In this document: positions 36,753 to 49,033 of the stretch, one piece after another | Position numbering within the stretch: position 1 is the stretch's first letter | Layout: each line of letters begins with the position of its first letter | Origin: Clostridiales bacterium | GTDB taxonomy: Bacteria; Bacillota; Clostridia; Christensenellales; Aristaeellaceae | Direction of reading: 5' to 3' | NCBI GenBank assembly: GCA_012837525.1 | Contig: DUQZ01000021.1 | Span: forward strand, 1,128 to 65,127 | Length of the DNA stretch: 64,000 bases | The notes under the pieces: generated by a model | Seen by the model: only the letters and a program-made list of their open reading frames with translations | What the model was told of the DNA's origin: nothing | Database searches by the model: none | Translations under genes and position numbers: made by a program

Positions 36753-37913
36753 ATGAAGCGTTTGATTCACCATAGCCTGTTCGCATCCATACTATTGGTT
36801 TGTCTGTTGTTTGTTAATTCCGGCTTGGCAACTCAATCTGTTGAGTTGGAGATGACCGAATTCAATGATTCAAAAGTGGAAATCCCCCAATTGACGGGGA
36901 TGGACAACAGCTTTGTTGAAAATACCATCAACGAGGCCATTAAAGCCGCGGCGGCAGATCACCTCAATACCCTGAGCCTGCTGCAATCGGGCACCCCAGG
37001 GCAGCTGACAGTCAAGGGCAAGTATACTGTAATCCCTTCCCGTGATGGGCATGATCTTTTGTCCATTCTTCTCACAGCGCAAGGCCGCATGCCCACTGGA
37101 AGGCCTGGGCACCAGCAGATTCCGCTGTCCTTTGATCTGGCAAACGGGCAAAGTGTTACGGCTGAACAGATATTTAAGGATACTGCAGCGGCCCAAACCT
37201 GGTTTGAGGTGAAGGTAGCTGAGATTTTTGAGGAAACGCTGTCCAACTACCTCGATATTGAAGATTTGAAACCTTTTCCGCTGGAGCGCTTTCTGATTGA
37301 TGAAACCGGGATTACCTTCTATTATCCGGACAACACCCTCACCTGGCTGTCCGGCCAGACCGCTTCCATCCATTTTCTGTATCACGAGATATTGGATCAA
37401 CTAAAGCTTGAGGAGCAGAGTTTTCTTGGCAACCTGGGTGTTTTGGAACGGTTAAAGCCTGATGAACAAAGCCAGGCGCGCATTAAGGACATCGTCAAAG
37501 ATGGCCGCCTGCCCGGCTTTGACATCCGCCTGGGCGAGAAGATGCTGGACATCCAGGAGCAATTTGGCCTCCTGTATGATCCGGAAGGCTTCGCAGAGGG
37601 GGAGAGCGTCCAGCTGGAGGACGACCGCTACCGCGAGACCCTGCTGATTGCCTATGGCGACGGGTTGCTGGACGGCATCCTGAGCAAGCGGATGAACTTG
37701 TTAGGGCTGATAACGGGGCTTAGCACACAGGACGACGTCCAAAGCGTGCTGGGCGAACCCTTCACCAGCCTGGACATGACGGATACCGCGGCGGCCTTAT
37801 ACAAACTGCCGGTTGGCGTCATGGATGTTTATCCGGTTGAAGGGGTGGAACTGCGGATGTATTACCAAGAAGACCGCGTTTTATATGCGGTCTGGATTCA
37901 AACCATCAAGTAA
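36753..37913 (+). CDS. secreted protein of unknown function (DUF4163/DUF3298-like N-terminal half)
   Basis: 386 aa. Signal peptide MKRLIHHSLFASILLVCLLFVNSGLA. NSFVENTINEAIK and ITFYYPDNTL...IHFLYHEI segments are reminiscent of RsiV-type DUF3298 folds. Confidence 0.6.
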   Translation: MKRLIHHSLFASILLVCLLFVNSGLATQSVELEMTEFNDSKVEIPQLTGMDNSFVENTINEAIKAAAADHLNTLSLLQSGTPGQLTVKGKYTVIPSRDGHDLLSILLTAQGRMPTGRPGHQQIPLSFDLANGQSVTAEQIFKDTAAAQTWFEVKVAEIFEETLSNYLDIEDLKPFPLERFLIDETGITFYYPDNTLTWLSGQTASIHFLYHEILDQLKLEEQSFLGNLGVLERLKPDEQSQARIKDIVKDGRLPGFDIRLGEKMLDIQEQFGLLYDPEGFAEGESVQLEDDRYRETLLIAYGDGLLDGILSKRMNLLGLITGLSTQDDVQSVLGEPFTSLDMTDTAAALYKLPVGVMDVYPVEGVELRMYYQEDRVLYAVWIQTIK

Positions 37914-40927: not shown

Positions 40928-40956
40928 TTGACTTATTCGTTTGTTCATGTTAATAT
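40928..40956 (+). promoter_or_regulatory. candidate sigma-A promoter of the FADS-rnf operon
   Basis: TTGACT-17 nt-TAATAT inside the AT-rich 175-nt gap after ftsK, about 50 nt upstream of ATG 41005. Confidence 0.45.
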
Positions 40957-41004
40957 TTTTCGTGTTCATCGTGCTTTATTAGGTTCAGATTGGCAGGAGA
41001 ATTG

Positions 41005-41643
41005 ATGAGGGTTTATCAGCTTGAGACGCTCCCATTTGGCGCCGTCGCGCCGTCAGTGATTTGCCTTGGCGTGTTTGACGGGGTTCATCTGGGACATCAA
41101 CAGCTGATAAAAGAATGCCTGAAGACAGCGAAGGAAAAGCACCTTTTGCCAGTCGTGCACACCTATGAGCCGCTGCCCATGCGCGTCATCGCGCCTGATC
41201 ATCAGCTGTTGGAACTCACCACCACAAACGAGCGATTGGAACTGATTGTGCGCTATGGCATCAAGGACATCGCCATCAGCCGGTTTGATGAAACCATGCA
41301 GCACACCAGCGGGCTTGATTTTTTTAAGCAGGTGCTTCTGGGCAAGTTGAACGCAAGGCACATTGTCGCAGGGTTTGACCACCGCTTTGGGTTTAAAGGC
41401 GACACCGATACAGGCAAACTCAAAGCACTGTGCGAAGGGGAAGGCGTCGGGTTTTCCTTGATATCACCCGTGAAAACGCCGTCTGGACAGGTCATTTCAA
41501 GCTCTGCCATCCGCAAAGCGATCAAAGACAGGGACTATGCGCTGGCAGAGGAGATGCTGGGCCGTCCCCTTGAGGACACGATGAAGCAACGGCTACACAT
41601 TACTGATGAGCCGGGAAGGTATAACGGAGGTTTGACTGAATGA
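41005..41643 (+). CDS. FMN adenylyltransferase (FAD synthetase) domain protein; RibF N-terminal module only, no riboflavin kinase domain
   Basis: GVFDGVHLGHQQLI, VHTYEPLP, LTTTNERLELI, VAGFDHRFGFKGD, VISSSAIRKAI...LGRP. The ORF ends about 20 aa after LGRP, where the kinase domain normally starts. An alternative TTG start lies at 40990. Confidence 0.8.
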   Translation: MRVYQLETLPFGAVAPSVICLGVFDGVHLGHQQLIKECLKTAKEKHLLPVVHTYEPLPMRVIAPDHQLLELTTTNERLELIVRYGIKDIAISRFDETMQHTSGLDFFKQVLLGKLNARHIVAGFDHRFGFKGDTDTGKLKALCEGEGVGFSLISPVKTPSGQVISSSAIRKAIKDRDYALAEEMLGRPLEDTMKQRLHITDEPGRYNGGLTE

Positions 41644-43544
41644 AGAACCGCATTTACGCATGGATTGTCCTGGGCGCGATTACCATCGTGGCCGGGCTGG
41701 GTCTTGCGCTCACCTATGGGGTGACCAAGGAACCCATCCGCCTGCAGGGAATCGCCGCGGAGGAACAGGCCAAAAAGGATGTCATGCCGGGCGCCGACAC
41801 CTTTGAAGAATTGGCGCTTGAGGACGGCAAGACGCTGTTTGTCGCCAAAAAGGGTGATGAGGTCCTGGGCTATGTCGGCAAGATGGAAGCCAAGGGTTAC
41901 GGCGGGCCGATCGAGGTCATCACTGGCGTAACGGAGGATGGCACCATCACAGGGATCAATGTCGGCGGCAGCGCGTTTGCCGAGACACCCGGCCTGGGCG
42001 CCAAAGCGAAGGATGCGGATTTCACCGCGCAGTTCACCGGCAAAAAAAGCCCGGTGCGGCTGGGTGACGCCGCGCAGGATAACGCGGTGGATGCCATCAC
42101 AGCAGCTACTATCACCAGCAACGCGGTGCTGGGCGCTGTCAACAATGTGGCCAAGCAGGTCAAAGCCTATCTCAATCCAGACGCGGACAAACCGGTCATG
42201 ATTGCCGAGGGTGTATCCTACGGCGGTGAAGCAGTTGGGTTTGCGGGCGCGGATCACCCCGTCGCGGTTGTTGTAACCGTCAAGGATGACGGCACCATCA
42301 GCGCGCTGAAAGTGGGGGATGAGCGCTTCAACGAGACGGAAGGCTACGGCGCTGCTGCACTTGAGGCAGATTTTGCCGCGCAGTTTGTGGGCAAGTCCCT
42401 GCCCATCAAGCTGGAAGATATCGATGGCATCTCCGGTGCGACCGTCACGAATAAGGCGGTTATTGAGGCCATCAACACCGCATTTGAAACAAAGAACGAG
42501 GTCGCTGGCCCCGCGCCCGAAGGCATCACCTATGCCGGGAGCGCGGTTGGCTTTGCCGGCAAGGACAACCCCATCGCAGTTCAGGTGACCGTCAAGGATG
42601 ACGGCACCATCACCGCGCTGACCATTGGCGATGACAGCTTCAACGAGACAGAAGGCTACGGCGCCGCGGCGCTTGAGCCTGCCTTTGCCCAACAGTTTAT
42701 GGGCAAGGCGCTGCCTGTCAAGCTGGAGGACATTGATGGCATCTCCGGCGCGACCATCACCAACAAGGCTGTGATTGAAGCCATCAACAAGGCCTATGAG
42801 GACAAGAACGTCATCAGTGAAACTGCCGCCGCAACCGCCAAGCCTACTGCGGAAGCGACCGCCACGCCCGAACCCGTAGCGATTCCGGAGGGCGCGCTCA
42901 CGGCTGCCAAAGATGGATTTGCAGGCCCGGTCGCCGTCGCGGTCACCTTTGATGAGAACGGCAAGATCACCTTCCTGCACATTGGCGATGACCAGTTTAA
43001 GGAAACCAAGGGCTATGGCCTGGCCGCGCTGGAAGCGGAGTTTAAGGACCAGTTTATCGGCAAGCTGCCGCCCCTGCGCATCCTGAAAGCGGATGAAGAG
43101 AAGACAGACGCCACCATTGACGCCATTGCCGGCGCGACCATCACCACCAACGCGGTGCTGGATGCCATCAACGAGCTGCATGCGCAGCAGTTCCCCAAGC
43201 AGGAAATCGTTGTGACCGGGGATGAGATCACTGTCACCAAACAAGGCTTCATGGGTCCAATCACCGTGAAGGTAACCTTCACGCAGGACGGCGCGATTGC
43301 CAAGCTTGATATTGTTCAGGACAGCTTTGCGGAGACCAAGGGCTATGGCGCAAAGGCGCTTGAGGACGCCTTCAAGCAACAGTTTGAGGGCAAGCAGCCG
43401 CCGCTCACCATCCGTGGGGCGGAGGACAAAGCCTCCAGCAGCAATGTGGACAACCTGCGCGATGTGGATACCGCGACCAGCGCGACCGTCACCATGCAGG
43501 CAATCATTGACGCCATCAACGAAGCGTTTGCGAACAAGCCGTAA
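41640..43544 (+). CDS. rnfG: RnfG-like electron transport subunit expanded to five FMN-binding modules
   Basis: 634 aa. One N-terminal TM helix. Module 1 has AETPGLG and DAITAATITSNAV (RnfG/NqrC type). Four further modules carry xET(E/K)GYG and D.I(S/A)GAT(I/V)T-type motifs. ATGA overlap with the upstream gene. Confidence 0.85.
   Translation: MKNRIYAWIVLGAITIVAGLGLALTYGVTKEPIRLQGIAAEEQAKKDVMPGADTFEELALEDGKTLFVAKKGDEVLGYVGKMEAKGYGGPIEVITGVTEDGTITGINVGGSAFAETPGLGAKAKDADFTAQFTGKKSPVRLGDAAQDNAVDAITAATITSNAVLGAVNNVAKQVKAYLNPDADKPVMIAEGVSYGGEAVGFAGADHPVAVVVTVKDDGTISALKVGDERFNETEGYGAAALEADFAAQFVGKSLPIKLEDIDGISGATVTNKAVIEAINTAFETKNEVAGPAPEGITYAGSAVGFAGKDNPIAVQVTVKDDGTITALTIGDDSFNETEGYGAAALEPAFAQQFMGKALPVKLEDIDGISGATITNKAVIEAINKAYEDKNVISETAAATAKPTAEATATPEPVAIPEGALTAAKDGFAGPVAVAVTFDENGKITFLHIGDDQFKETKGYGLAALEAEFKDQFIGKLPPLRILKADEEKTDATIDAIAGATITTNAVLDAINELHAQQFPKQEIVVTGDEITVTKQGFMGPITVKVTFTQDGAIAKLDIVQDSFAETKGYGAKALEDAFKQQFEGKQPPLTIRGAEDKASSSNVDNLRDVDTATSATVTMQAIIDAINEAFANKP
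42207..42809 (+). repeat. in-frame tandem duplication, 312-nt period (FMN-binding modules 2 and 3)
   Basis: Modules aa 190-286 and 294-390 are identical at 74 of 97 aligned residues by hand count. The identical 25-mer ACCGTCAAGGATGACGGCACCATCA occurs at 42276-42300 and 42588-42612. Confidence 0.85.
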
Positions 43545-43578: not shown

Positions 43579-44895
43579 ATGAAATTGAGTTTCAAAGGCG
43601 GCATCCATCCGCTGAGGGAACTGCATGAGGGCAAGGGGAAAACCCATTCACAGCCAATCCGCGACTTTGTTCCGGAGCGCGTCTGCATTCCCGTTGATAT
43701 GCACATCGGCACGCCAAGCGCGCCCTGCGTGAAAAAGGGTGATCTGGTCAAACTGGGCCAGGTTATTGCGACACCGGTTGGCGGCATCGGCATCCCGGTA
43801 CACGCCAGCGTTTCCGGCGAGGTTATCTCGGTTGGCCCGCGGCAGATGCTGGGCAAAACAGCCAGCACCTGCATTGAGATCGCCAATGACGGCAAGGACG
43901 AGTGGGTGGAGTTGTCTCCCCTGGGATCTGTTGACAGCGCCCCGGCTGACAAGATTGTCCAGCAGGTTAAGGACGCAGGCATTTGCGGCATGGGCGGCGC
44001 GTGCTTCCCCTCCCACATCAAGATGATGATTCCGGAGGGCAAGTCCGTTGACACCATCATCCTAAACGGCGCAGAGTGTGAGACCTTCCTCACCGCGGAC
44101 CACCGCCTGATGCTGGAAGAGCCGCAGCGCATTGTGGACGGCCTGCGCCTCATCATGCGCGCGATGAAGGTGTCAACCGGCATCATCGCCATTGAGGACA
44201 ACAAAAAAGACGCCATCAAGGTCATGCAGGAAGCAATCAGCGGCCTGGAAGGCATCCGTGTGGCGGTACTGAAAACCAAATACCCGCAGGGCGGTGAAAA
44301 ACAGTTGATCGACGCGGTTACCAAGCGGCAGGTTCCCTCAGGGGCACTGCCCATTGACGCGCAGGTGGTTGTGTTCAATGTAGGCACAGCCGCTGCCATC
44401 GCGGACGCGGTCATTCACGGTAAACCGCTCATCAGCCGTGTAACGACGGTTACGGGCTGTGTCAACACGCCCAGCAACCTGCGCGTGCGCATCGGCACCA
44501 GTTTCCAGGATGCCATTGAGGCAGCGGGCGGTTTTTCTGAGGATCCGGGCAAGATTTTTGCCGGCGGCAGCATGACTGGTCTGTGCATCCCTGGCACCGA
44601 AGTCAGCCTGACCAAGGCCAACAACGGCATTGTGGTCCTCAATCAGAAGGATGCCGTGAAAAAGCAGCCCACACCCTGCATCCGCTGCGGGCGCTGCGTG
44701 GAAGCCTGCCCGTCCCGGCTGAACCCACAGTTTTTGAACGCGCTCAATGACCTGAGTGACCTGGCCGGCATGAAGAAGCACAATGTGATGGATTGCACCG
44801 TGTGCGGCTCCTGCTCCTATGTGTGCCCGGCCAAGATTGAACTGTGCGCCACATTCAAGGAAGCAAAAGAAAAAATTACTGCGAGGAGGGTGTAA
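43579..44895 (+). CDS. rnfC: electron transport complex subunit RnfC
   Basis: 438 aa. MKLSFKGGIHP N-terminus, two 4Fe-4S motifs CIRCGRCVEACP and CTVCGSCSYVCP. Confidence 0.93.
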   Translation: MKLSFKGGIHPLRELHEGKGKTHSQPIRDFVPERVCIPVDMHIGTPSAPCVKKGDLVKLGQVIATPVGGIGIPVHASVSGEVISVGPRQMLGKTASTCIEIANDGKDEWVELSPLGSVDSAPADKIVQQVKDAGICGMGGACFPSHIKMMIPEGKSVDTIILNGAECETFLTADHRLMLEEPQRIVDGLRLIMRAMKVSTGIIAIEDNKKDAIKVMQEAISGLEGIRVAVLKTKYPQGGEKQLIDAVTKRQVPSGALPIDAQVVVFNVGTAAAIADAVIHGKPLISRVTTVTGCVNTPSNLRVRIGTSFQDAIEAAGGFSEDPGKIFAGGSMTGLCIPGTEVSLTKANNGIVVLNQKDAVKKQPTPCIRCGRCVEACPSRLNPQFLNALNDLSDLAGMKKHNVMDCTVCGSCSYVCPAKIELCATFKEAKEKITARRV

Positions 44896-44899
44896 AGGA

Positions 44900-45844
44900 A
44901 TGAAACTGCGTCTTTCCACCGGGCCCCATCTGTTAAACCGGGAAAGCACCCAGACATTGATGCTGGATGTGCTCATCGCGCTGGTGCCCACGACTGTCGC
45001 TGGCATTTACCTGTTTGGCACAAAGGCTGCCTGGGTGCTGGCTGTGGCGGTTGTCTCCGCTGTGCTGTGTGAATACCTGTTCCAAAAGCTGTCCAAGCGG
45101 CCTGTGCGCGTGATGGATTTGTCCGCCGTCGTGACCGGCCTTATTCTGGGCCTGAATTTGCCGGCGGAAGCCCCGCTGTGGATGCCTGCCATCGGCAGCG
45201 CCATCGCCATTTTGCTGGTCAAGGAACTATTTGGCGGCATCGGCCAGAACTTTATGAACCCGGCGCTACTGGCGCGCGGCGTACTGTTGGCTTCCTGGCC
45301 AGCCCGGATGAGCGTGTATTATATCCCTGCCCGTGTGCTGGGTGTGACAGAAGTCGTGCCGGCTGGCACGGATGTGATCTCCGCCGCCACGCCCTTGATC
45401 CGCCCGGGCGGCTATCAGCTTTACGATTTGCTGATGGGCAACATCCCCGGCACCATTGGCGAAGTGTGCAAGATTGCCATTCTGATCGGTTTCCTGTATA
45501 TGCTGTTCGTGGGCACCATCCGCTGGCATATCCCGGTGCTGTTTGTGGGCACGGTCGCGGTGATGACCTGGATTATGGGCGGCGATCCGCTGCGCGCTGT
45601 CCTGTCCGGTGGCTTGCTCTTTGGCGCCGTGTTCATGGCGACAGATTATGTGACAAACCCCATGCTCAAGGTGGGGCAGGTGATCTTCGCGATTGGCTGC
45701 GGCATCCTGGTAGGCGTTATCCGCATGACCAAGGCTTATCCCGAGGGCGTTACCTACGCCATCTTGCTGATGAACATTTTAACCCCGCTCATTGACCGCT
45801 GGACCAGCCGACGTGTATATGGGATGGTGAAGAAACATGCATGA
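44900..45844 (+). CDS. rnfD: electron transport complex subunit RnfD
   Basis: MKLRLSTGPHL..., polytopic membrane protein. Flavinylation-type motif DVISAATPL. The track ORF starts at 44819. Confidence 0.93.
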   Translation: MKLRLSTGPHLLNRESTQTLMLDVLIALVPTTVAGIYLFGTKAAWVLAVAVVSAVLCEYLFQKLSKRPVRVMDLSAVVTGLILGLNLPAEAPLWMPAIGSAIAILLVKELFGGIGQNFMNPALLARGVLLASWPARMSVYYIPARVLGVTEVVPAGTDVISAATPLIRPGGYQLYDLLMGNIPGTIGEVCKIAILIGFLYMLFVGTIRWHIPVLFVGTVAVMTWIMGGDPLRAVLSGGLLFGAVFMATDYVTNPMLKVGQVIFAIGCGILVGVIRMTKAYPEGVTYAILLMNILTPLIDRWTSRRVYGMVKKHA

Positions 45845-46466
45845 GAAAAAATTGACAATGCGCGGCGTTTTCGTCAATGGGATCATTAACGAAAACCCCA
45901 TTTTCCGCCTGGTGCTGGGCATCTGCCCAACCCTGGCCGCGACCACCAGCGCAACCAACGGGCTGGGCATGGGCTTGGCTGCCAGTTTTGTTCTGCTGGG
46001 CAGCAACATCGTCATCAGCCTGCTGCGCAACTTGATCCCGGATAAGGTGCGTATTCCAGCCTTTATCGTGGTCATCTCCACCTTTGTGACCATTGTCCAG
46101 CTGCTGATGCAGGCCTTTGTACCCGCGCTGTATGACGCCCTGGGGTTGTTTATCCCGCTGATTGTGGTTAACTGCATTATCCTGGCGCGCGCGGAGGCGT
46201 TTGCCAGCCGCAACTCCTTGCTGTTGTCCGCGGCTGATGGCCTGGGCATGGGCATGGGCTTTACCATCGCGCTGATTATCATCGGCGGCATCCGCGAGCT
46301 CCTTGGCAGCGGCACCATCTTTGGCACCGCCCTGTTTGGCGCCTCTTTTGAGCCGATGCTGCTGGCTGTCATGGCCCCGGGCGGCTTCCTTGTGCTGGGC
46401 CTTGTGTTGGGCCTGGTAAACGCCATCACCAACCGCATTAACGCCAGGAAAGGAGCGGAAGTATAA
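45837..46466 (+). CDS. rnfE: electron transport complex subunit RnfE
   Basis: 209 aa. NGIINENPIFRLVLGICPTLA is typical of RnfE/NqrD. Overlaps the rnfD stop by 8 nt. Confidence 0.92.
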   Translation: MHEKKLTMRGVFVNGIINENPIFRLVLGICPTLAATTSATNGLGMGLAASFVLLGSNIVISLLRNLIPDKVRIPAFIVVISTFVTIVQLLMQAFVPALYDALGLFIPLIVVNCIILARAEAFASRNSLLLSAADGLGMGMGFTIALIIIGGIRELLGSGTIFGTALFGASFEPMLLAVMAPGGFLVLGLVLGLVNAITNRINARKGAEV

Positions 46467-47059
46467 TGGAATTGACCTTAACCAATTTCCTGCTGTTCAT
46501 GGTCAACTGTGTATTGACCAATAACTTCATTTTCTCCCGGTACCTGGGTTGCTGTCCCTTTTTGGGCGTATCCAGCAAGGTGGAAACCGCCTCTGGCATG
46601 GGCATCGCGGTTACCTTTGTAATGGCGCTGGCTTCCCTGTTTACCTACTTTGTGTATCATTATGTGTTGGTTCCGCTGCAGTTGGCTTATCTGATTACCA
46701 TTTCATTCATTCTGGTCATCGCTTCCCTGGTGCAGTTTGTGGAGATGTTCATGAAGAAATCCATGCCCTCCCTGTACAACGCGCTGGGCATCTACCTGCC
46801 GCTGATCACCACCAACTGCGCGGTGCTGGGCGCCACCATCCTCAACATTGACAACAGCTACAACCTGTTCTGGTCCGTGATGAACGGCGTGTTTGGCGCG
46901 ATGGGCTTTATGCTGGCCATTGTGCTGATGGCCGGCGTGCGCGAGCGGCTGGAAGCTTCCAATATTCCAAAAGCCTTCAAGGGCTTCCCGATCAGCCTGG
47001 TTGTCGCGGGCTTGATGTCCGTTGCCTTCCTGGGCTTCGCAGGCCTGGGCAAAATGTAA
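46466..47059 (+). CDS. rnfA: electron transport complex subunit RnfA
   Basis: 197 aa. VLTNNFIFSRYLGCCPFLGVS is typical of RnfA/NqrE. Confidence 0.92.
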   Translation: MELTLTNFLLFMVNCVLTNNFIFSRYLGCCPFLGVSSKVETASGMGIAVTFVMALASLFTYFVYHYVLVPLQLAYLITISFILVIASLVQFVEMFMKKSMPSLYNALGIYLPLITTNCAVLGATILNIDNSYNLFWSVMNGVFGAMGFMLAIVLMAGVRERLEASNIPKAFKGFPISLVVAGLMSVAFLGFAGLGKM

Positions 47060-47074
47060 GGAGGGGATGAACCA

Positions 47075-47872
47075 ATGGAATTAAACGCGATTCTCTATGC
47101 TGCCGGTGTCATGGGCGGCCTGGGCATCCTCTTTGGCTTAATTTTAACCTTTGCTTCCAAAAAATTCGCCGTGCCGGTGGATGAGCGCTTTACCCTGGCA
47201 AGGGACGCGATGGCCGGCGCCAACTGTGGTGCTTGCGGATACCCTGGCTGCGACGCCTACGCGCTTGCGGTGGTCAACGGCGAAACAACGATCGACCTGT
47301 GCACGCCCGGCGGCCAGAAAACACTTGATTTGCTGGCAGAGATTATGGGCCAGACAGCCGAAGTGACCGAGCCCGTGGTAGCGCGTGTCCTGTGTCAGGG
47401 TGAGACCGGCGTGGTCAAGCCGCGCTATGACTACAACGGCCCCGAAACCTGCCATACCGCGGTTGGCTTGGCCGGCGGCCCAACCATGTGCCAATGGAGT
47501 TGTGTCGGCCTGGGGGACTGTGTGCGCGTGTGCCGCTTTGACGCTATGAAGATTGAAAACGGCATCGTCGTCATTGACGAAGACAAATGCACCGCCTGTG
47601 GCATGTGTGTGAAGGAGTGCCCGCGTAGCGTCATCAAACTGCTGCCCAAAAAGGCGCGTGTCACTGTGCGCTGCCAAAGCCTGGCCGCGCCGCGCGAGGC
47701 ACGGGAAACCTGCGACAAGGCCTGCATCGGCTGCAAGCGTTGTGAAAAAGCCTGCGAGTACGATGCCATTCATGTCAATAACTTCCTGGCCCTGATTGAC
47801 CCTGAAAAATGCACCCTGTGCGGTGCTTGTGTCCAGGTATGCCCCACCAAGTGCATTGAGCAGCTGCCCTGA
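47075..47872 (+). CDS. rnfB: electron transport complex subunit RnfB (ferredoxin-type)
   Basis: 265 aa. N-terminal anchor, CGACGYPGC cluster motif, plus CTACGMCVKECP and CTLCGACVQVCP 4Fe-4S motifs. Confidence 0.92.
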   Translation: MELNAILYAAGVMGGLGILFGLILTFASKKFAVPVDERFTLARDAMAGANCGACGYPGCDAYALAVVNGETTIDLCTPGGQKTLDLLAEIMGQTAEVTEPVVARVLCQGETGVVKPRYDYNGPETCHTAVGLAGGPTMCQWSCVGLGDCVRVCRFDAMKIENGIVVIDEDKCTACGMCVKECPRSVIKLLPKKARVTVRCQSLAAPREARETCDKACIGCKRCEKACEYDAIHVNNFLALIDPEKCTLCGACVQVCPTKCIEQLP

Positions 47873-47875
47873 ACC

Positions 47876-49033
47876 ATGGCTGAAACCAGAGTACAAAAAC
47901 AACAGGAAGAACGCGCGCGGATTGGTCTGCGCGCGTCTTTGATAGGGCTGGTCGTCAACGGCTTTTTGGCCGCCAGCAAAATCATCGCAGGCAGCGTCGC
48001 GGGCTCGGTCTCAATCCTTGCAGATGGCTTAAACAACCTGTCCGACACCGGCTCTGTCCTCATTTCCTGGCTGAGCATGCACATCGCGCGCAAGCCGGAA
48101 GACCGGGATCACCCGCTTGGCCATGGACGCTTTGAGTACATCGGCTCCCTGGCAATCGCGGTGGTCATATTGTATGTTGGAATTGACTTGTTCAAATCCA
48201 GTATCGAAGCGATTATCACGCCTGAAAAACCCTTGTTTACCTGGTGGATCGCTGCGCTCACCGCGTTTGGTATTCCGCTGAAGGCTTTTTTGTATGTCTA
48301 TTATAAAAAGCGGGGGAACGCGCATAAACTGTCCACCCTAATTGCGGCCGCGCAAGATAGTTTCAACGATGTCCTGATTACCTCTGCCGTTCTGATTGGC
48401 CTCTTTTTGTCGCATTTTTTTGATATTCTGGCTGATGGCTGGCTGGGCCTTCTGGTATCCTGCTTCATCCTGTGGGGCGGAATCAGCCTGATCCGGGATA
48501 CGATTACCCTGTTGGTGGGCGGCAAACCGGATAAGGAAACGGGCAGCAAGATTCTGGCCATCATCAACAAACACCCGCAAATCAAGGGTGTGCATGATTT
48601 TGTGCTGCATGATTATGGCCCGGAAAACATGATGGCCTCCATCCATGTGGAGGTAGACGCCTCCACCAGCCTGCTGGAGGTCCATGATGTGGTGGACAGC
48701 ATCGAGCAGGAGGTCATGCGCACGCTCAATCTGCCCATCACCATTCATACGGATCCTGTCCTGCCCATTGATGCGCCGGGGCAGGAAGTCAAACAAAGCA
48801 TCACCCAGTTTTTGGAAGAACAAAACCCACCTCTCACCATGCATGATTTCCGGATTGTGCCTGGCAAACGCGTCACCAAGCTGATTTTTGGCGTGGTGGT
48901 ACCGGAGAATTTTACGGAGGATGAAGCCCTGGTGCAACGCATCACAGAGTTCGCCAACACGCTCAACCCGCGCCACCAATGTGTGATTGGAATTGACCGG
49001 GATTATTTTACGGATCACACAGAAGAAACCTAA
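47876..49033 (+). CDS. cation diffusion facilitator (CDF) family transporter
   Basis: 385 aa. Six TM helices with SVSILADGLNNLSD and HDFVLHDYGP cytoplasmic-domain patterns typical of CDF. Confidence 0.88.
   Translation: MAETRVQKQQEERARIGLRASLIGLVVNGFLAASKIIAGSVAGSVSILADGLNNLSDTGSVLISWLSMHIARKPEDRDHPLGHGRFEYIGSLAIAVVILYVGIDLFKSSIEAIITPEKPLFTWWIAALTAFGIPLKAFLYVYYKKRGNAHKLSTLIAAAQDSFNDVLITSAVLIGLFLSHFFDILADGWLGLLVSCFILWGGISLIRDTITLLVGGKPDKETGSKILAIINKHPQIKGVHDFVLHDYGPENMMASIHVEVDASTSLLEVHDVVDSIEQEVMRTLNLPITIHTDPVLPIDAPGQEVKQSITQFLEEQNPPLTMHDFRIVPGKRVTKLIFGVVVPENFTEDEALVQRITEFANTLNPRHQCVIGIDRDYFTDHTEET

Follow-up and report, generated by a model that had tools for sequence, protein, structure and literature searches.

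The rnf Operon and Its Five-domain FMN_bind Protein

The stretch of DNA analyzed here, referred to as the window, comprises 64,000 nucleotides (nt) from a Clostridiales bacterium placed by GTDB in the Christensenellales (GenBank assembly GCA_012837525.1, contig DUQZ01000021.1, positions 1,128 to 65,127 of the forward strand); all coordinates refer to positions within it. Its source is an uncultured, Christensenella-like member of that order found in anaerobic digesters. The window contains a complete rnf operon with the order FAD_syn-rnfG-rnfC-rnfD-rnfE-rnfA-rnfB, in which FAD_syn is a flavin adenine dinucleotide (FAD) synthetase of the flavin mononucleotide (FMN) adenylyltransferase (FMNAT)-only type and rnfG is present once. 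The subject of this study is the rnfG gene, an open reading frame (ORF) of 634 codons at 41640..43544 (+ strand) that starts with ATG and encodes 634 amino acids (aa). The product is very probably a multi-flavin RnfG, and a slight preference is given below to an explanation in which its additional domains form a flavin side branch of the Rnf complex.

The 634-aa protein had originally been predicted, from the DNA, to possess one N-terminal helix (aa 7-26) and five modules, and this layout was borne out by the sequence, by Pfam, and by an AlphaFold2 (AF2) model. The N-terminal transmembrane (TM) anchor (aa 7-26; 41658..41717, on the + strand, as are all parts of the gene) lies within an AF2 helix spanning residues 2-48 and corresponds to the TM and linker helices of RnfG chain 7zc6_G. 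Five stretches of the protein matched FMN_bind (PF04205), with a whole-protein E value of 6.6e-72, and when scanned singly all five modules exceeded the curated cut-off of 22 bits with scores of 51-68 bits, as had been expected. Module 1 (aa 60-180; 41817..42179; 67.7 bits) is the canonical RnfG FMN domain, with T157 (codon 42108-42110) as candidate flavin acceptor. It is followed by module 2 (aa 186-290; 42195..42509; 51.1 bits), with acceptor T268 (codon 42441-42443), and module 3 (aa 291-394; 42510..42821; 58.2 bits), with acceptor T372 (codon 42753-42755). After a spacer come module 4 (aa 418-520; 42891..43199; 54.2 bits), in which acceptor T500 lies in AGAT (codon 43137-43139), and module 5 (aa 524-634; 43209..43541; 51.5 bits), in which T616 lies in TSAT (codon 43485-43487). 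The spacer, rich in Ala, Thr, Pro, and Glu, had been placed at aa 391-417 and is indeed present; it was assigned here to aa 395-417 (42822..42890), and residues 395-412 are disordered in the AF2 model, with predicted local distance difference test (pLDDT) scores of <50.

The module motifs claimed at the outset were likewise found: AETPGLG occurs at aa 113-119 of module 1 and ET[E/K]GYG in modules 2-5 (NETEGYG twice, KETKGYG, and AETKGYG). ApbE moves FMN from FAD onto the Thr of its target motif at the outer membrane face, and the five putative acceptor motifs read DAITAAT(157), DGISGAT(268), DGISGAT(372), DAIAGAT(500), and DTATSAT(616). Module 4 thus has Ala at the first [S/T] position, and AGAT is the second commonest variant among homologues. 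The five threonines put forward as acceptors each lie in such a motif and are conserved across 28 aligned homologues of 5-6 modules: T157, T268, T500, and T616 do not vary, and conservation of T372 is at least 90%. At the protein level, the modules are 37-52% identical to one another, except for modules 2 and 3, which share 71% identity. At the DNA level, modules 2 and 3 are 78% identical, and a 61-nt core shared by the other modules is ∼67-82% identical.

In the AF2 model, the N-terminal helix is joined to five folded alpha/beta domains with pLDDT values mostly of 70-90, and low confidence is confined to the linkers at 183-188, 395-412, and 521-526. Given the predicted template modelling score (pTM) of 0.37 and the low-confidence linkers, the five-domain chain is modelled as beads on a string; AlphaFold models of this kind were presented for multi-flavinylated proteins by Huang et al. 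(2024). Two basic residues, K2 and R4, precede the TM helix on its N side and therefore imply an N-in/C-out topology for the anchor, by which the modules would lie outside the membrane. The protein has more than one FMN_bind domain together with a membrane anchor, as in the definition of multi-flavinylated proteins, with the orientation of the anchor taken from RnfG and NqrC structures. A motif search found no CxxCH sequence, indicative of multihaem proteins, in the 634-aa RnfG or in its 120 best homologues. A weak similarity to TonB_C/tonB_Cterm at aa 534-587 was rejected as noise (21.3 against a cut-off of 24.6, with no stretch passing).

Residues 1-182 Correspond to an Ordinary RnfG

Residues 1-182 aligned end to end with the RnfG model TIGR01947 (model positions 2-185 of 187) and scored 104.2 bits, a thin margin over the curated cut-off of 102 bits; the whole protein scored 214.9 bits. 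In a phmmer comparison, residues 9-172 aligned with residues 11-179 of the 189 in Clostridium tetanomorphum RnfG (7zc6_G), and Acetobacterium woodii RnfG (9eri_G) was also matched. The same two chains were the top Foldseek matches, with TM-scores of 0.66-0.68 (normalized to the target) and 34-37% identity, followed by Azotobacter vinelandii RnfG and NqrC. The fold of one module also agreed with that of CbFMN4 domain 1, known from a crystal structure (TM-score 0.75, again normalized to the target). Together, sequence and model indicate that residues 1-182 represent a full RnfG of the ordinary kind, made up of TM helix, linker helix, and FMN domain, to which four FMN domains of the ApbE-modified type are fused C-terminally, and the RnfG homology proposed for the protein is upheld by these matches and by its place as the sole rnfG of a complete operon.

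The protein resembles canonical RnfG (PDB 7ZC6 chain G and 9ERI chain G) in having a TM helix plus a linker helix and one FMN domain with the Thr of an [S/T]-[G/A]-A-T motif, with 37% identity over 180 columns, and canonical RnfG is likewise a subunit of an rnfCDEAB-encoded complex. It differs by a 450-aa C-terminal extension carrying four more FMN domains. The gene order differs too, with rnfG ahead of rnfC, whereas canonical rnfG stands between rnfD and rnfE. Here, rnfD overlaps rnfE, and there is therefore no rnfG between them. A search of all six frames of the window with a module hidden Markov model (HMM) revealed no second rnfG or other FMN_bind ORF. Since the usual rnfG slot is empty and no other FMN_bind ORF exists in the window, the G subunit of this Rnf complex is the 634-aa protein, at least on the evidence of the window.

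Organization of the Operon

The FAD_syn gene (212 aa; 41005..41643, + strand; PF06574, E 2.4e-39), for which an alternative TTG start exists at 40990, ends in a stop codon that overlaps the rnfG start (ATGA). Downstream of rnfG, beyond a 34-nt gap in which the + strand has no terminator-like site, rnfC (438 aa; 43579..44895, +) was identified by TIGR01945 (489 bits) and by Pfam RnfC_N and Complex1_51K. It is followed by rnfD (314 aa; 44900..45844, +; TIGR01946, 303 bits), which encodes a predicted ApbE flavinylation motif of its own, DVISAAT(164)PL; by rnfE (209 aa; 45837..46466, +; TIGR01948, 255 bits), which overlaps the end of rnfD; by rnfA (197 aa; 46466..47059, +; TIGR01943, 256 bits); and by rnfB of the poly-ferredoxin type (265 aa; 47075..47872, +; NF005503, 259 bits). 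The scores of rnfC, D, E, A, and B lie far above the NCBIfam cut-offs.

A promoter-like site, TTGACT-17-TAATAT with a TG element (40928..40956, +), lies upstream of FAD_syn and could mark where the operon starts; it is no more than a match to the consensus, and promoter-like and terminator sites from the consensus scan were no more frequent than in shuffled sequence. No Rfam element, FMN riboswitch included, was detected at E <= 1 within the 36-50 kb region around the operon.

Domain Expansion and Operon Order among Relatives

A protein search with the 634-aa RnfG returned 1179 clusters at E <= 1e-5. The best 120 of the 1179 were inspected; all carry 4-9 FMN_bind domains, and every full-length one has an RnfG-type N-terminal anchor. 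Homologues are annotated as "FMN-binding protein" or "RnfG" and derive from metagenome-assembled genomes (MAGs) of Christensenellales, Eubacteriales, and Oscillospiraceae. One comparison is provided by an orthologue (locus L010) from an "uncultured Christensenella sp." MAG, which is 92% identical at the nucleotide level and 95% at the amino acid level and has an equal length of 634 aa and the same five-module layout. The ratio of non-synonymous to synonymous substitution (dN/dS) against this orthologue is 0.11 overall and 0.04-0.27 per module; thus, purifying selection acts on every module.

An alignment covering the N-terminal 295 aa was also used to scan GTDB species genomes, yielding 80 loci that were annotated with the window proteins. 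Three or more FMN_bind domains were found at 26 loci, and in all 13 of these with a complete operon the order was G-CDEAB. A short FAD_syn gene lies directly upstream of rnfG at 15 of the 26, as compared with none of the 47 single-domain loci, and ApbE lies within 2.5 kb upstream at nine of the 26, counts that take no account of shared ancestry. The single-domain loci, with an RnfG of ∼183 aa, bear out the earlier statement that ordinary RnfG has one such domain, and 32 of the 47 have the classical CDGEAB order. Intermediates exist: single-domain genes in the order G-CDEAB (L037, L050, and L051) and two-domain genes in the order CD-G-EAB (L057, L058, L065, and L071). This distribution indicates that the multidomain rnfG was relocated to the operon head alongside domain expansion, and that the number of modules varies rapidly (3-9) among relatives.

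Expanded proteins were also encountered apart from Rnf. RnfG-like multi-FMN_bind proteins with 4-8 domains are encoded outside rnf operons, typically right after ApbE (L025, L027, and L032), and at L027 the genes downstream encode a LarA-like lactate racemase and a methyltransferase. Judging from these gene contexts, Rnf-independent reuse of the expanded RnfG-type protein has evidently taken place. At L063 (8968-10680; uncultured Oscillibacter sp. MAG), a gene not in an rnf operon encodes an RnfG-like anchor and FMN_bind domain fused to a cytochrome c552/NrfA-like multihaem domain (PF02335, E 3.9e-69); this fusion is a flavin-haem hybrid of the type mentioned by Méheust et al. (2021).

An FMNAT-only FAD Synthetase Accompanies the Multidomain rnfG

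The 212-aa FMNAT protein matched PF06574 with no riboflavin-kinase domain (PF01687), and it matched RibF models over no more than the N-terminal ∼190 residues of those models. A homologue search placed it in a distinct family of 190-215-aa proteins; below ∼40% identity, the matches turn into ordinary bifunctional RibF of ∼305 aa. The genes for three of the more distant short members (39-45% identical) each directly precede a multi-FMN_bind gene (617-1238 aa), after which come RnfC and RnfD, at some loci with DUF1622 or NusG_II genes in between. Two of the loci (P0182 and P0183) have the arrangement ApbE-FAD_syn-multi-FMN_bind, with ApbE directly upstream on the same strand; at the P0168 locus (L094), ApbE is on the opposite strand, ∼2 kb upstream. 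A short FMNAT gene precedes a multidomain rnfG in the window, at L035 and L041, and at L090-L094, and in relatives it is often itself preceded by ApbE.

From these gene orders, the FMNAT-only gene is a consistent companion of the multidomain rnfG in this clade, and in the lineage of the window ApbE, unseen there, appears to have been relocated elsewhere. The FMNAT-only enzyme plausibly provides a dedicated FAD supply for flavinylation. In Escherichia coli, co-expression of FAD synthetase makes labelling by ApbE complete. An associated FAD synthetase is not mentioned in the portions of Méheust et al. (2021) and of the 2025 ApbE review considered here, nor is a G-first operon order discussed in those of Méheust et al. 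(2021; PMC8238504).

Among the distant relatives, small DUF1622 and NusG_II (PF07009) genes lie in or beside the ApbE-FAD_syn-rnfG-rnfC cluster (L090-L094), and a membrane protein gene with PF07456 (Hpre_diP_synt_I) lies directly upstream of rnfG at L026 (8352-8900). None of these DUF1622, NusG_II, and PF07456 genes has a counterpart in the window.

Comparison with Known Systems

Listeria monocytogenes PplA is similar to the 634-aa RnfG in that it is extracytosolic, has several FMN_bind domains of the ApbE-flavinylated type (two in PplA), and is believed to pass electrons to the outside. PplA, a lipoprotein, receives its electrons from Ndh2, demethylmenaquinone, and EetA/B. By contrast, the anchor here is the TM helix of RnfG, with no lipobox, and the electron source would be Rnf. 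None of ndh2, eetAB, dmk, and ApbE/FmnB was found among the Pfam annotations of the called genes of the window, and membership of a Listeria-type extracellular electron transfer locus was rejected, given the lack of a lipobox and of any of the genes of that locus in the window. The 634-aa RnfG may nevertheless work in a similar way to PplA, though it is no member of its system.

RnfG proteins with more than one FMN-binding domain were described as "multi-flavinylated RnfGs," some of them from Christensenellales, by Méheust et al. (2021; eLife 10:e66878; PMC8238504, Fig. 6), who propose a second electron path to extracytosolic acceptors and draw an analogy with the Rnf/multihaem system of methanogens. 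The protein studied here resembles those RnfGs in domain content, in its rnf gene cluster, in its affiliation with the Christensenellales, and in the role proposed. Unlike the subset of Christensenellales proteins highlighted by these authors, which have an added multihaem domain, it has no CxxCH motif. Their study is a survey, and the portions of it considered here describe neither the 634-aa protein nor its MAG. The class of multi-flavin RnfG was already catalogued in 2021, and the 634-aa protein is a newly added example.

Covalent attachment of FMN to tandem domains has been established for two proteins outside Rnf. Co-expression with ApbE and FAD synthetase gives SaFMN3 with three covalent FMN and CbFMN4 with four (Tong et al., 2023; PDB 8P2A/8P2B). 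Like the 634-aa protein, both have FMN_bind domains arranged in tandem behind an N-terminal anchor, and in those two proteins experiment showed each domain to hold one covalent FMN. They differ in being non-Rnf proteins whose genes are flanked by flavin transferase genes. In Methanosarcina acetivorans, Rnf is associated with the multihaem cytochrome MmcA, and electrons are thought to be diverted to methanophenazine or external acceptors. That system, like the present one, combines Rnf with an extra multi-cofactor extracytoplasmic module, the difference being that the cofactors of MmcA are c-type haems on a separate protein, whereas here flavin domains are fused to RnfG.

Proposed Function of the Additional Flavin Domains

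The proposed explanation may be set out as follows. The entire flavin chain would lie outside the membrane, like the domains of RnfG and NqrC, and ApbE would attach one FMN to each of the five Thr residues with FAD as donor. FMNAT, probably co-transcribed and co-translated with RnfG, would raise the FAD supply for a fivefold demand (sixfold with RnfD). The flavin of module 1 would act as in a normal Rnf, shuttling electrons between the [2Fe-2S] cluster of RnfA/E and the flavin of RnfD; the RnfG/NqrC domain is described as an extracytoplasmic, mobile shuttle between these two sites in the 2025 RNF/NQR review. Modules 2-5, joined by linkers of ∼6-18 disordered residues, would constitute a tethered side branch in which electrons are exchanged by collision, and through which the flavin of RnfG could reach acceptors (or donors) located in the wall zone or beyond the cell. 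In this way, ferredoxin or NADH could be oxidized by an external sink without cytochromes. The reach of the chain would be up to 25-30 nm, a rough estimate based on five domains of ∼3 nm plus linkers. Confidence in the side-branch function of modules 2-5 is evenly balanced; the explanation as a whole, a multi-flavin RnfG with a flavin side branch, is held with a little more assurance than doubt.

Several points weigh against this explanation. No experiment on any multi-flavin RnfG is reported in the portions of Méheust et al. (2021), Huang et al. (2024), and the 2025 ApbE and RNF/NQR reviews considered here. Neither Pfam annotation of the called genes over ∼60 kb nor tblastn searches with three ApbE sequences from related loci detected ApbE in the window, and no acceptor, reductase, or wall-binding gene is obvious among its Pfam-annotated genes; with no acceptor, reductase, or ApbE gene in the 64 kb, neither a destination for the electrons nor an enzyme for maturation is seen there. 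The organism should need ApbE regardless, because RnfD carries its own flavinylation motif, a consideration drawn from established Rnf/Nqr biochemistry. In several homologues (P0013, P0025-P0029, P0091-P0104, and others), some modules have DAINSAY or DAVLTAL in place of the D..SGAT acceptor motif, so that, to judge from these sequences, not all modules across homologues can be flavinylated and not each need be redox-active. The association of FMNAT with the multidomain gene could partly reflect shared ancestry in one clade, and the 212-aa FMNAT gene might be the housekeeping FAD synthetase of the organism. The inter-domain geometry of the AF2 model is of low confidence (pTM 0.37), which leaves the distances between flavins unfixed, and four domains carried on the mobile RnfG shuttle could hinder Rnf turnover instead of adding to it.

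An unlikely alternative is that the extra flavins act as an electron buffer or safety valve, storing electrons or leaking them to O2 or oxidants and thereby protecting the anaerobe or relieving over-reduction of Rnf. This would agree with the behavior of SaFMN3, whose three flavins share a single midpoint potential of -184 mV and which, once reduced, is reoxidized by O2 (Tong et al., 2023), and with the lack of a dedicated acceptor gene in the operon. The presence of 3-9 domains and long spacers suggests reach over storage, however, and the buffer proposal lacks direct evidence and overlaps with the side branch, both being electron exits.

It is less probable again that modules 2-5 are mainly structural or flavin-holding, as a wall spacer, stalk, or covalent flavin store, with only module 1 engaged in electron transfer. 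Such a role would suit the AF2 model, in which there are no confident contacts between domains, and those homologues in which internal or terminal modules have no acceptor Thr. Across the 634-aa protein and the 27 closest homologues matched to it in architecture, however, all five acceptor Thr are (near-)invariant; every module is under purifying selection; and the multidomain form is accompanied by the FMNAT gene and, in relatives, by ApbE too.

The 634-aa protein could also be an independent, PplA-like extracellular electron transfer protein that happens to be encoded upstream of rnfC, with the working RnfG encoded elsewhere in the genome. Multidomain proteins of the RnfG-like kind are indeed encoded away from rnf operons, in many cases right behind ApbE (L025, L027, and L032). 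Against this, the operon has no other rnfG, its rnfD and rnfE overlap, residues 1-182 match RnfG end to end, relatives have a single-domain G at the equivalent position of G-CDEAB (L037, L050, and L051), and only 34 nt without a + strand terminator-like site separate the gene from rnfC; this alternative is accordingly considered quite improbable.

The fear voiced with the original prediction, that internal repeats collapsed or expanded in assembly had produced the count of five, can be set aside as having a negligible chance of being true, for although many MAG contigs break in multidomain rnfG genes (L021-L032 end within or just past the gene), the modules are strongly diverged at the DNA level, 49 indexed contig blocks from several studies, with many samples and assemblers (ENA, JGI, Logan, and NCBI; mostly anaerobic digesters), hold an identical 634-aa protein, the 92%-identical orthologue L010, with its dN/dS of 0.11, is equal in length, and multidomain homologues occur on contigs of 1-3.4 Mb.

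Returning to the flavin side branch, multi-flavinylated proteins have been proposed as flavin counterparts of multihaem cytochromes, and an Rnf with a built-in flavin chain would, if the explanation is true, tie the ferredoxin/NAD+ energy node of fermenting anaerobes to the outside. This bears on electron disposal, syntrophy, and electro-activity in the Christensenellales, which are prominent in guts and anaerobic digesters. ApbE, FMNAT, and rnfG form a compact gene set whose joint expression could yield the protein for testing. The new points are modest: the G-first order with domain expansion, the FMNAT-only gene at the operon head, selection on every module, and the 3-9 module variation. 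In a bolder and rather doubtful extension, the Rnf of this clade would have been rebuilt as a cytochrome-free ferredoxin/NADH:extracellular-acceptor oxidoreductase, with a wall-spanning RnfG of 3-9 flavins matured by a dedicated, operon-encoded kit of FMNAT (plus ApbE in relatives); in digesters and guts, the complex could directly release electrons to, or draw them from, minerals, humics, or methanogenic partners, and FMNAT would then be an unrecognized specific accessory factor for multi-site extracytosolic flavinylation.

Neighboring Genes and Contig Ends

A cation-diffusion-facilitator gene (Cation_efflux and ZT_dimer) at 47876-49033 (+) starts only 4 nt past the rnfB stop and is therefore probably co-transcribed with rnfB. 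A gene of this kind follows rnfB in the closest relatives only (L010-L012 and L033), and it is speculation to connect it with the handling of metal or iron by the flavin chain. A further gene at 36753-37913 (+) encodes a protein of 386 aa whose N-terminus has a signal-like hydrophobic segment and which has no match in Pfam; it sits between a dUTPase-like gene and ftsK, a position kept on all operon-bearing contigs. The remaining genes of the window are housekeeping genes: gyrBA, dnaB, rpsO, pnp, ftsK, frr, uppS, cdsA, dxr, rseP, ispG, and polC. Among the surveyed loci, contigs end in or just after the multidomain rnfG at L021-L032, L036, L038, and L041; the internal repeats evidently fragment short-read assemblies, and domain counts taken from such contigs are lower bounds.

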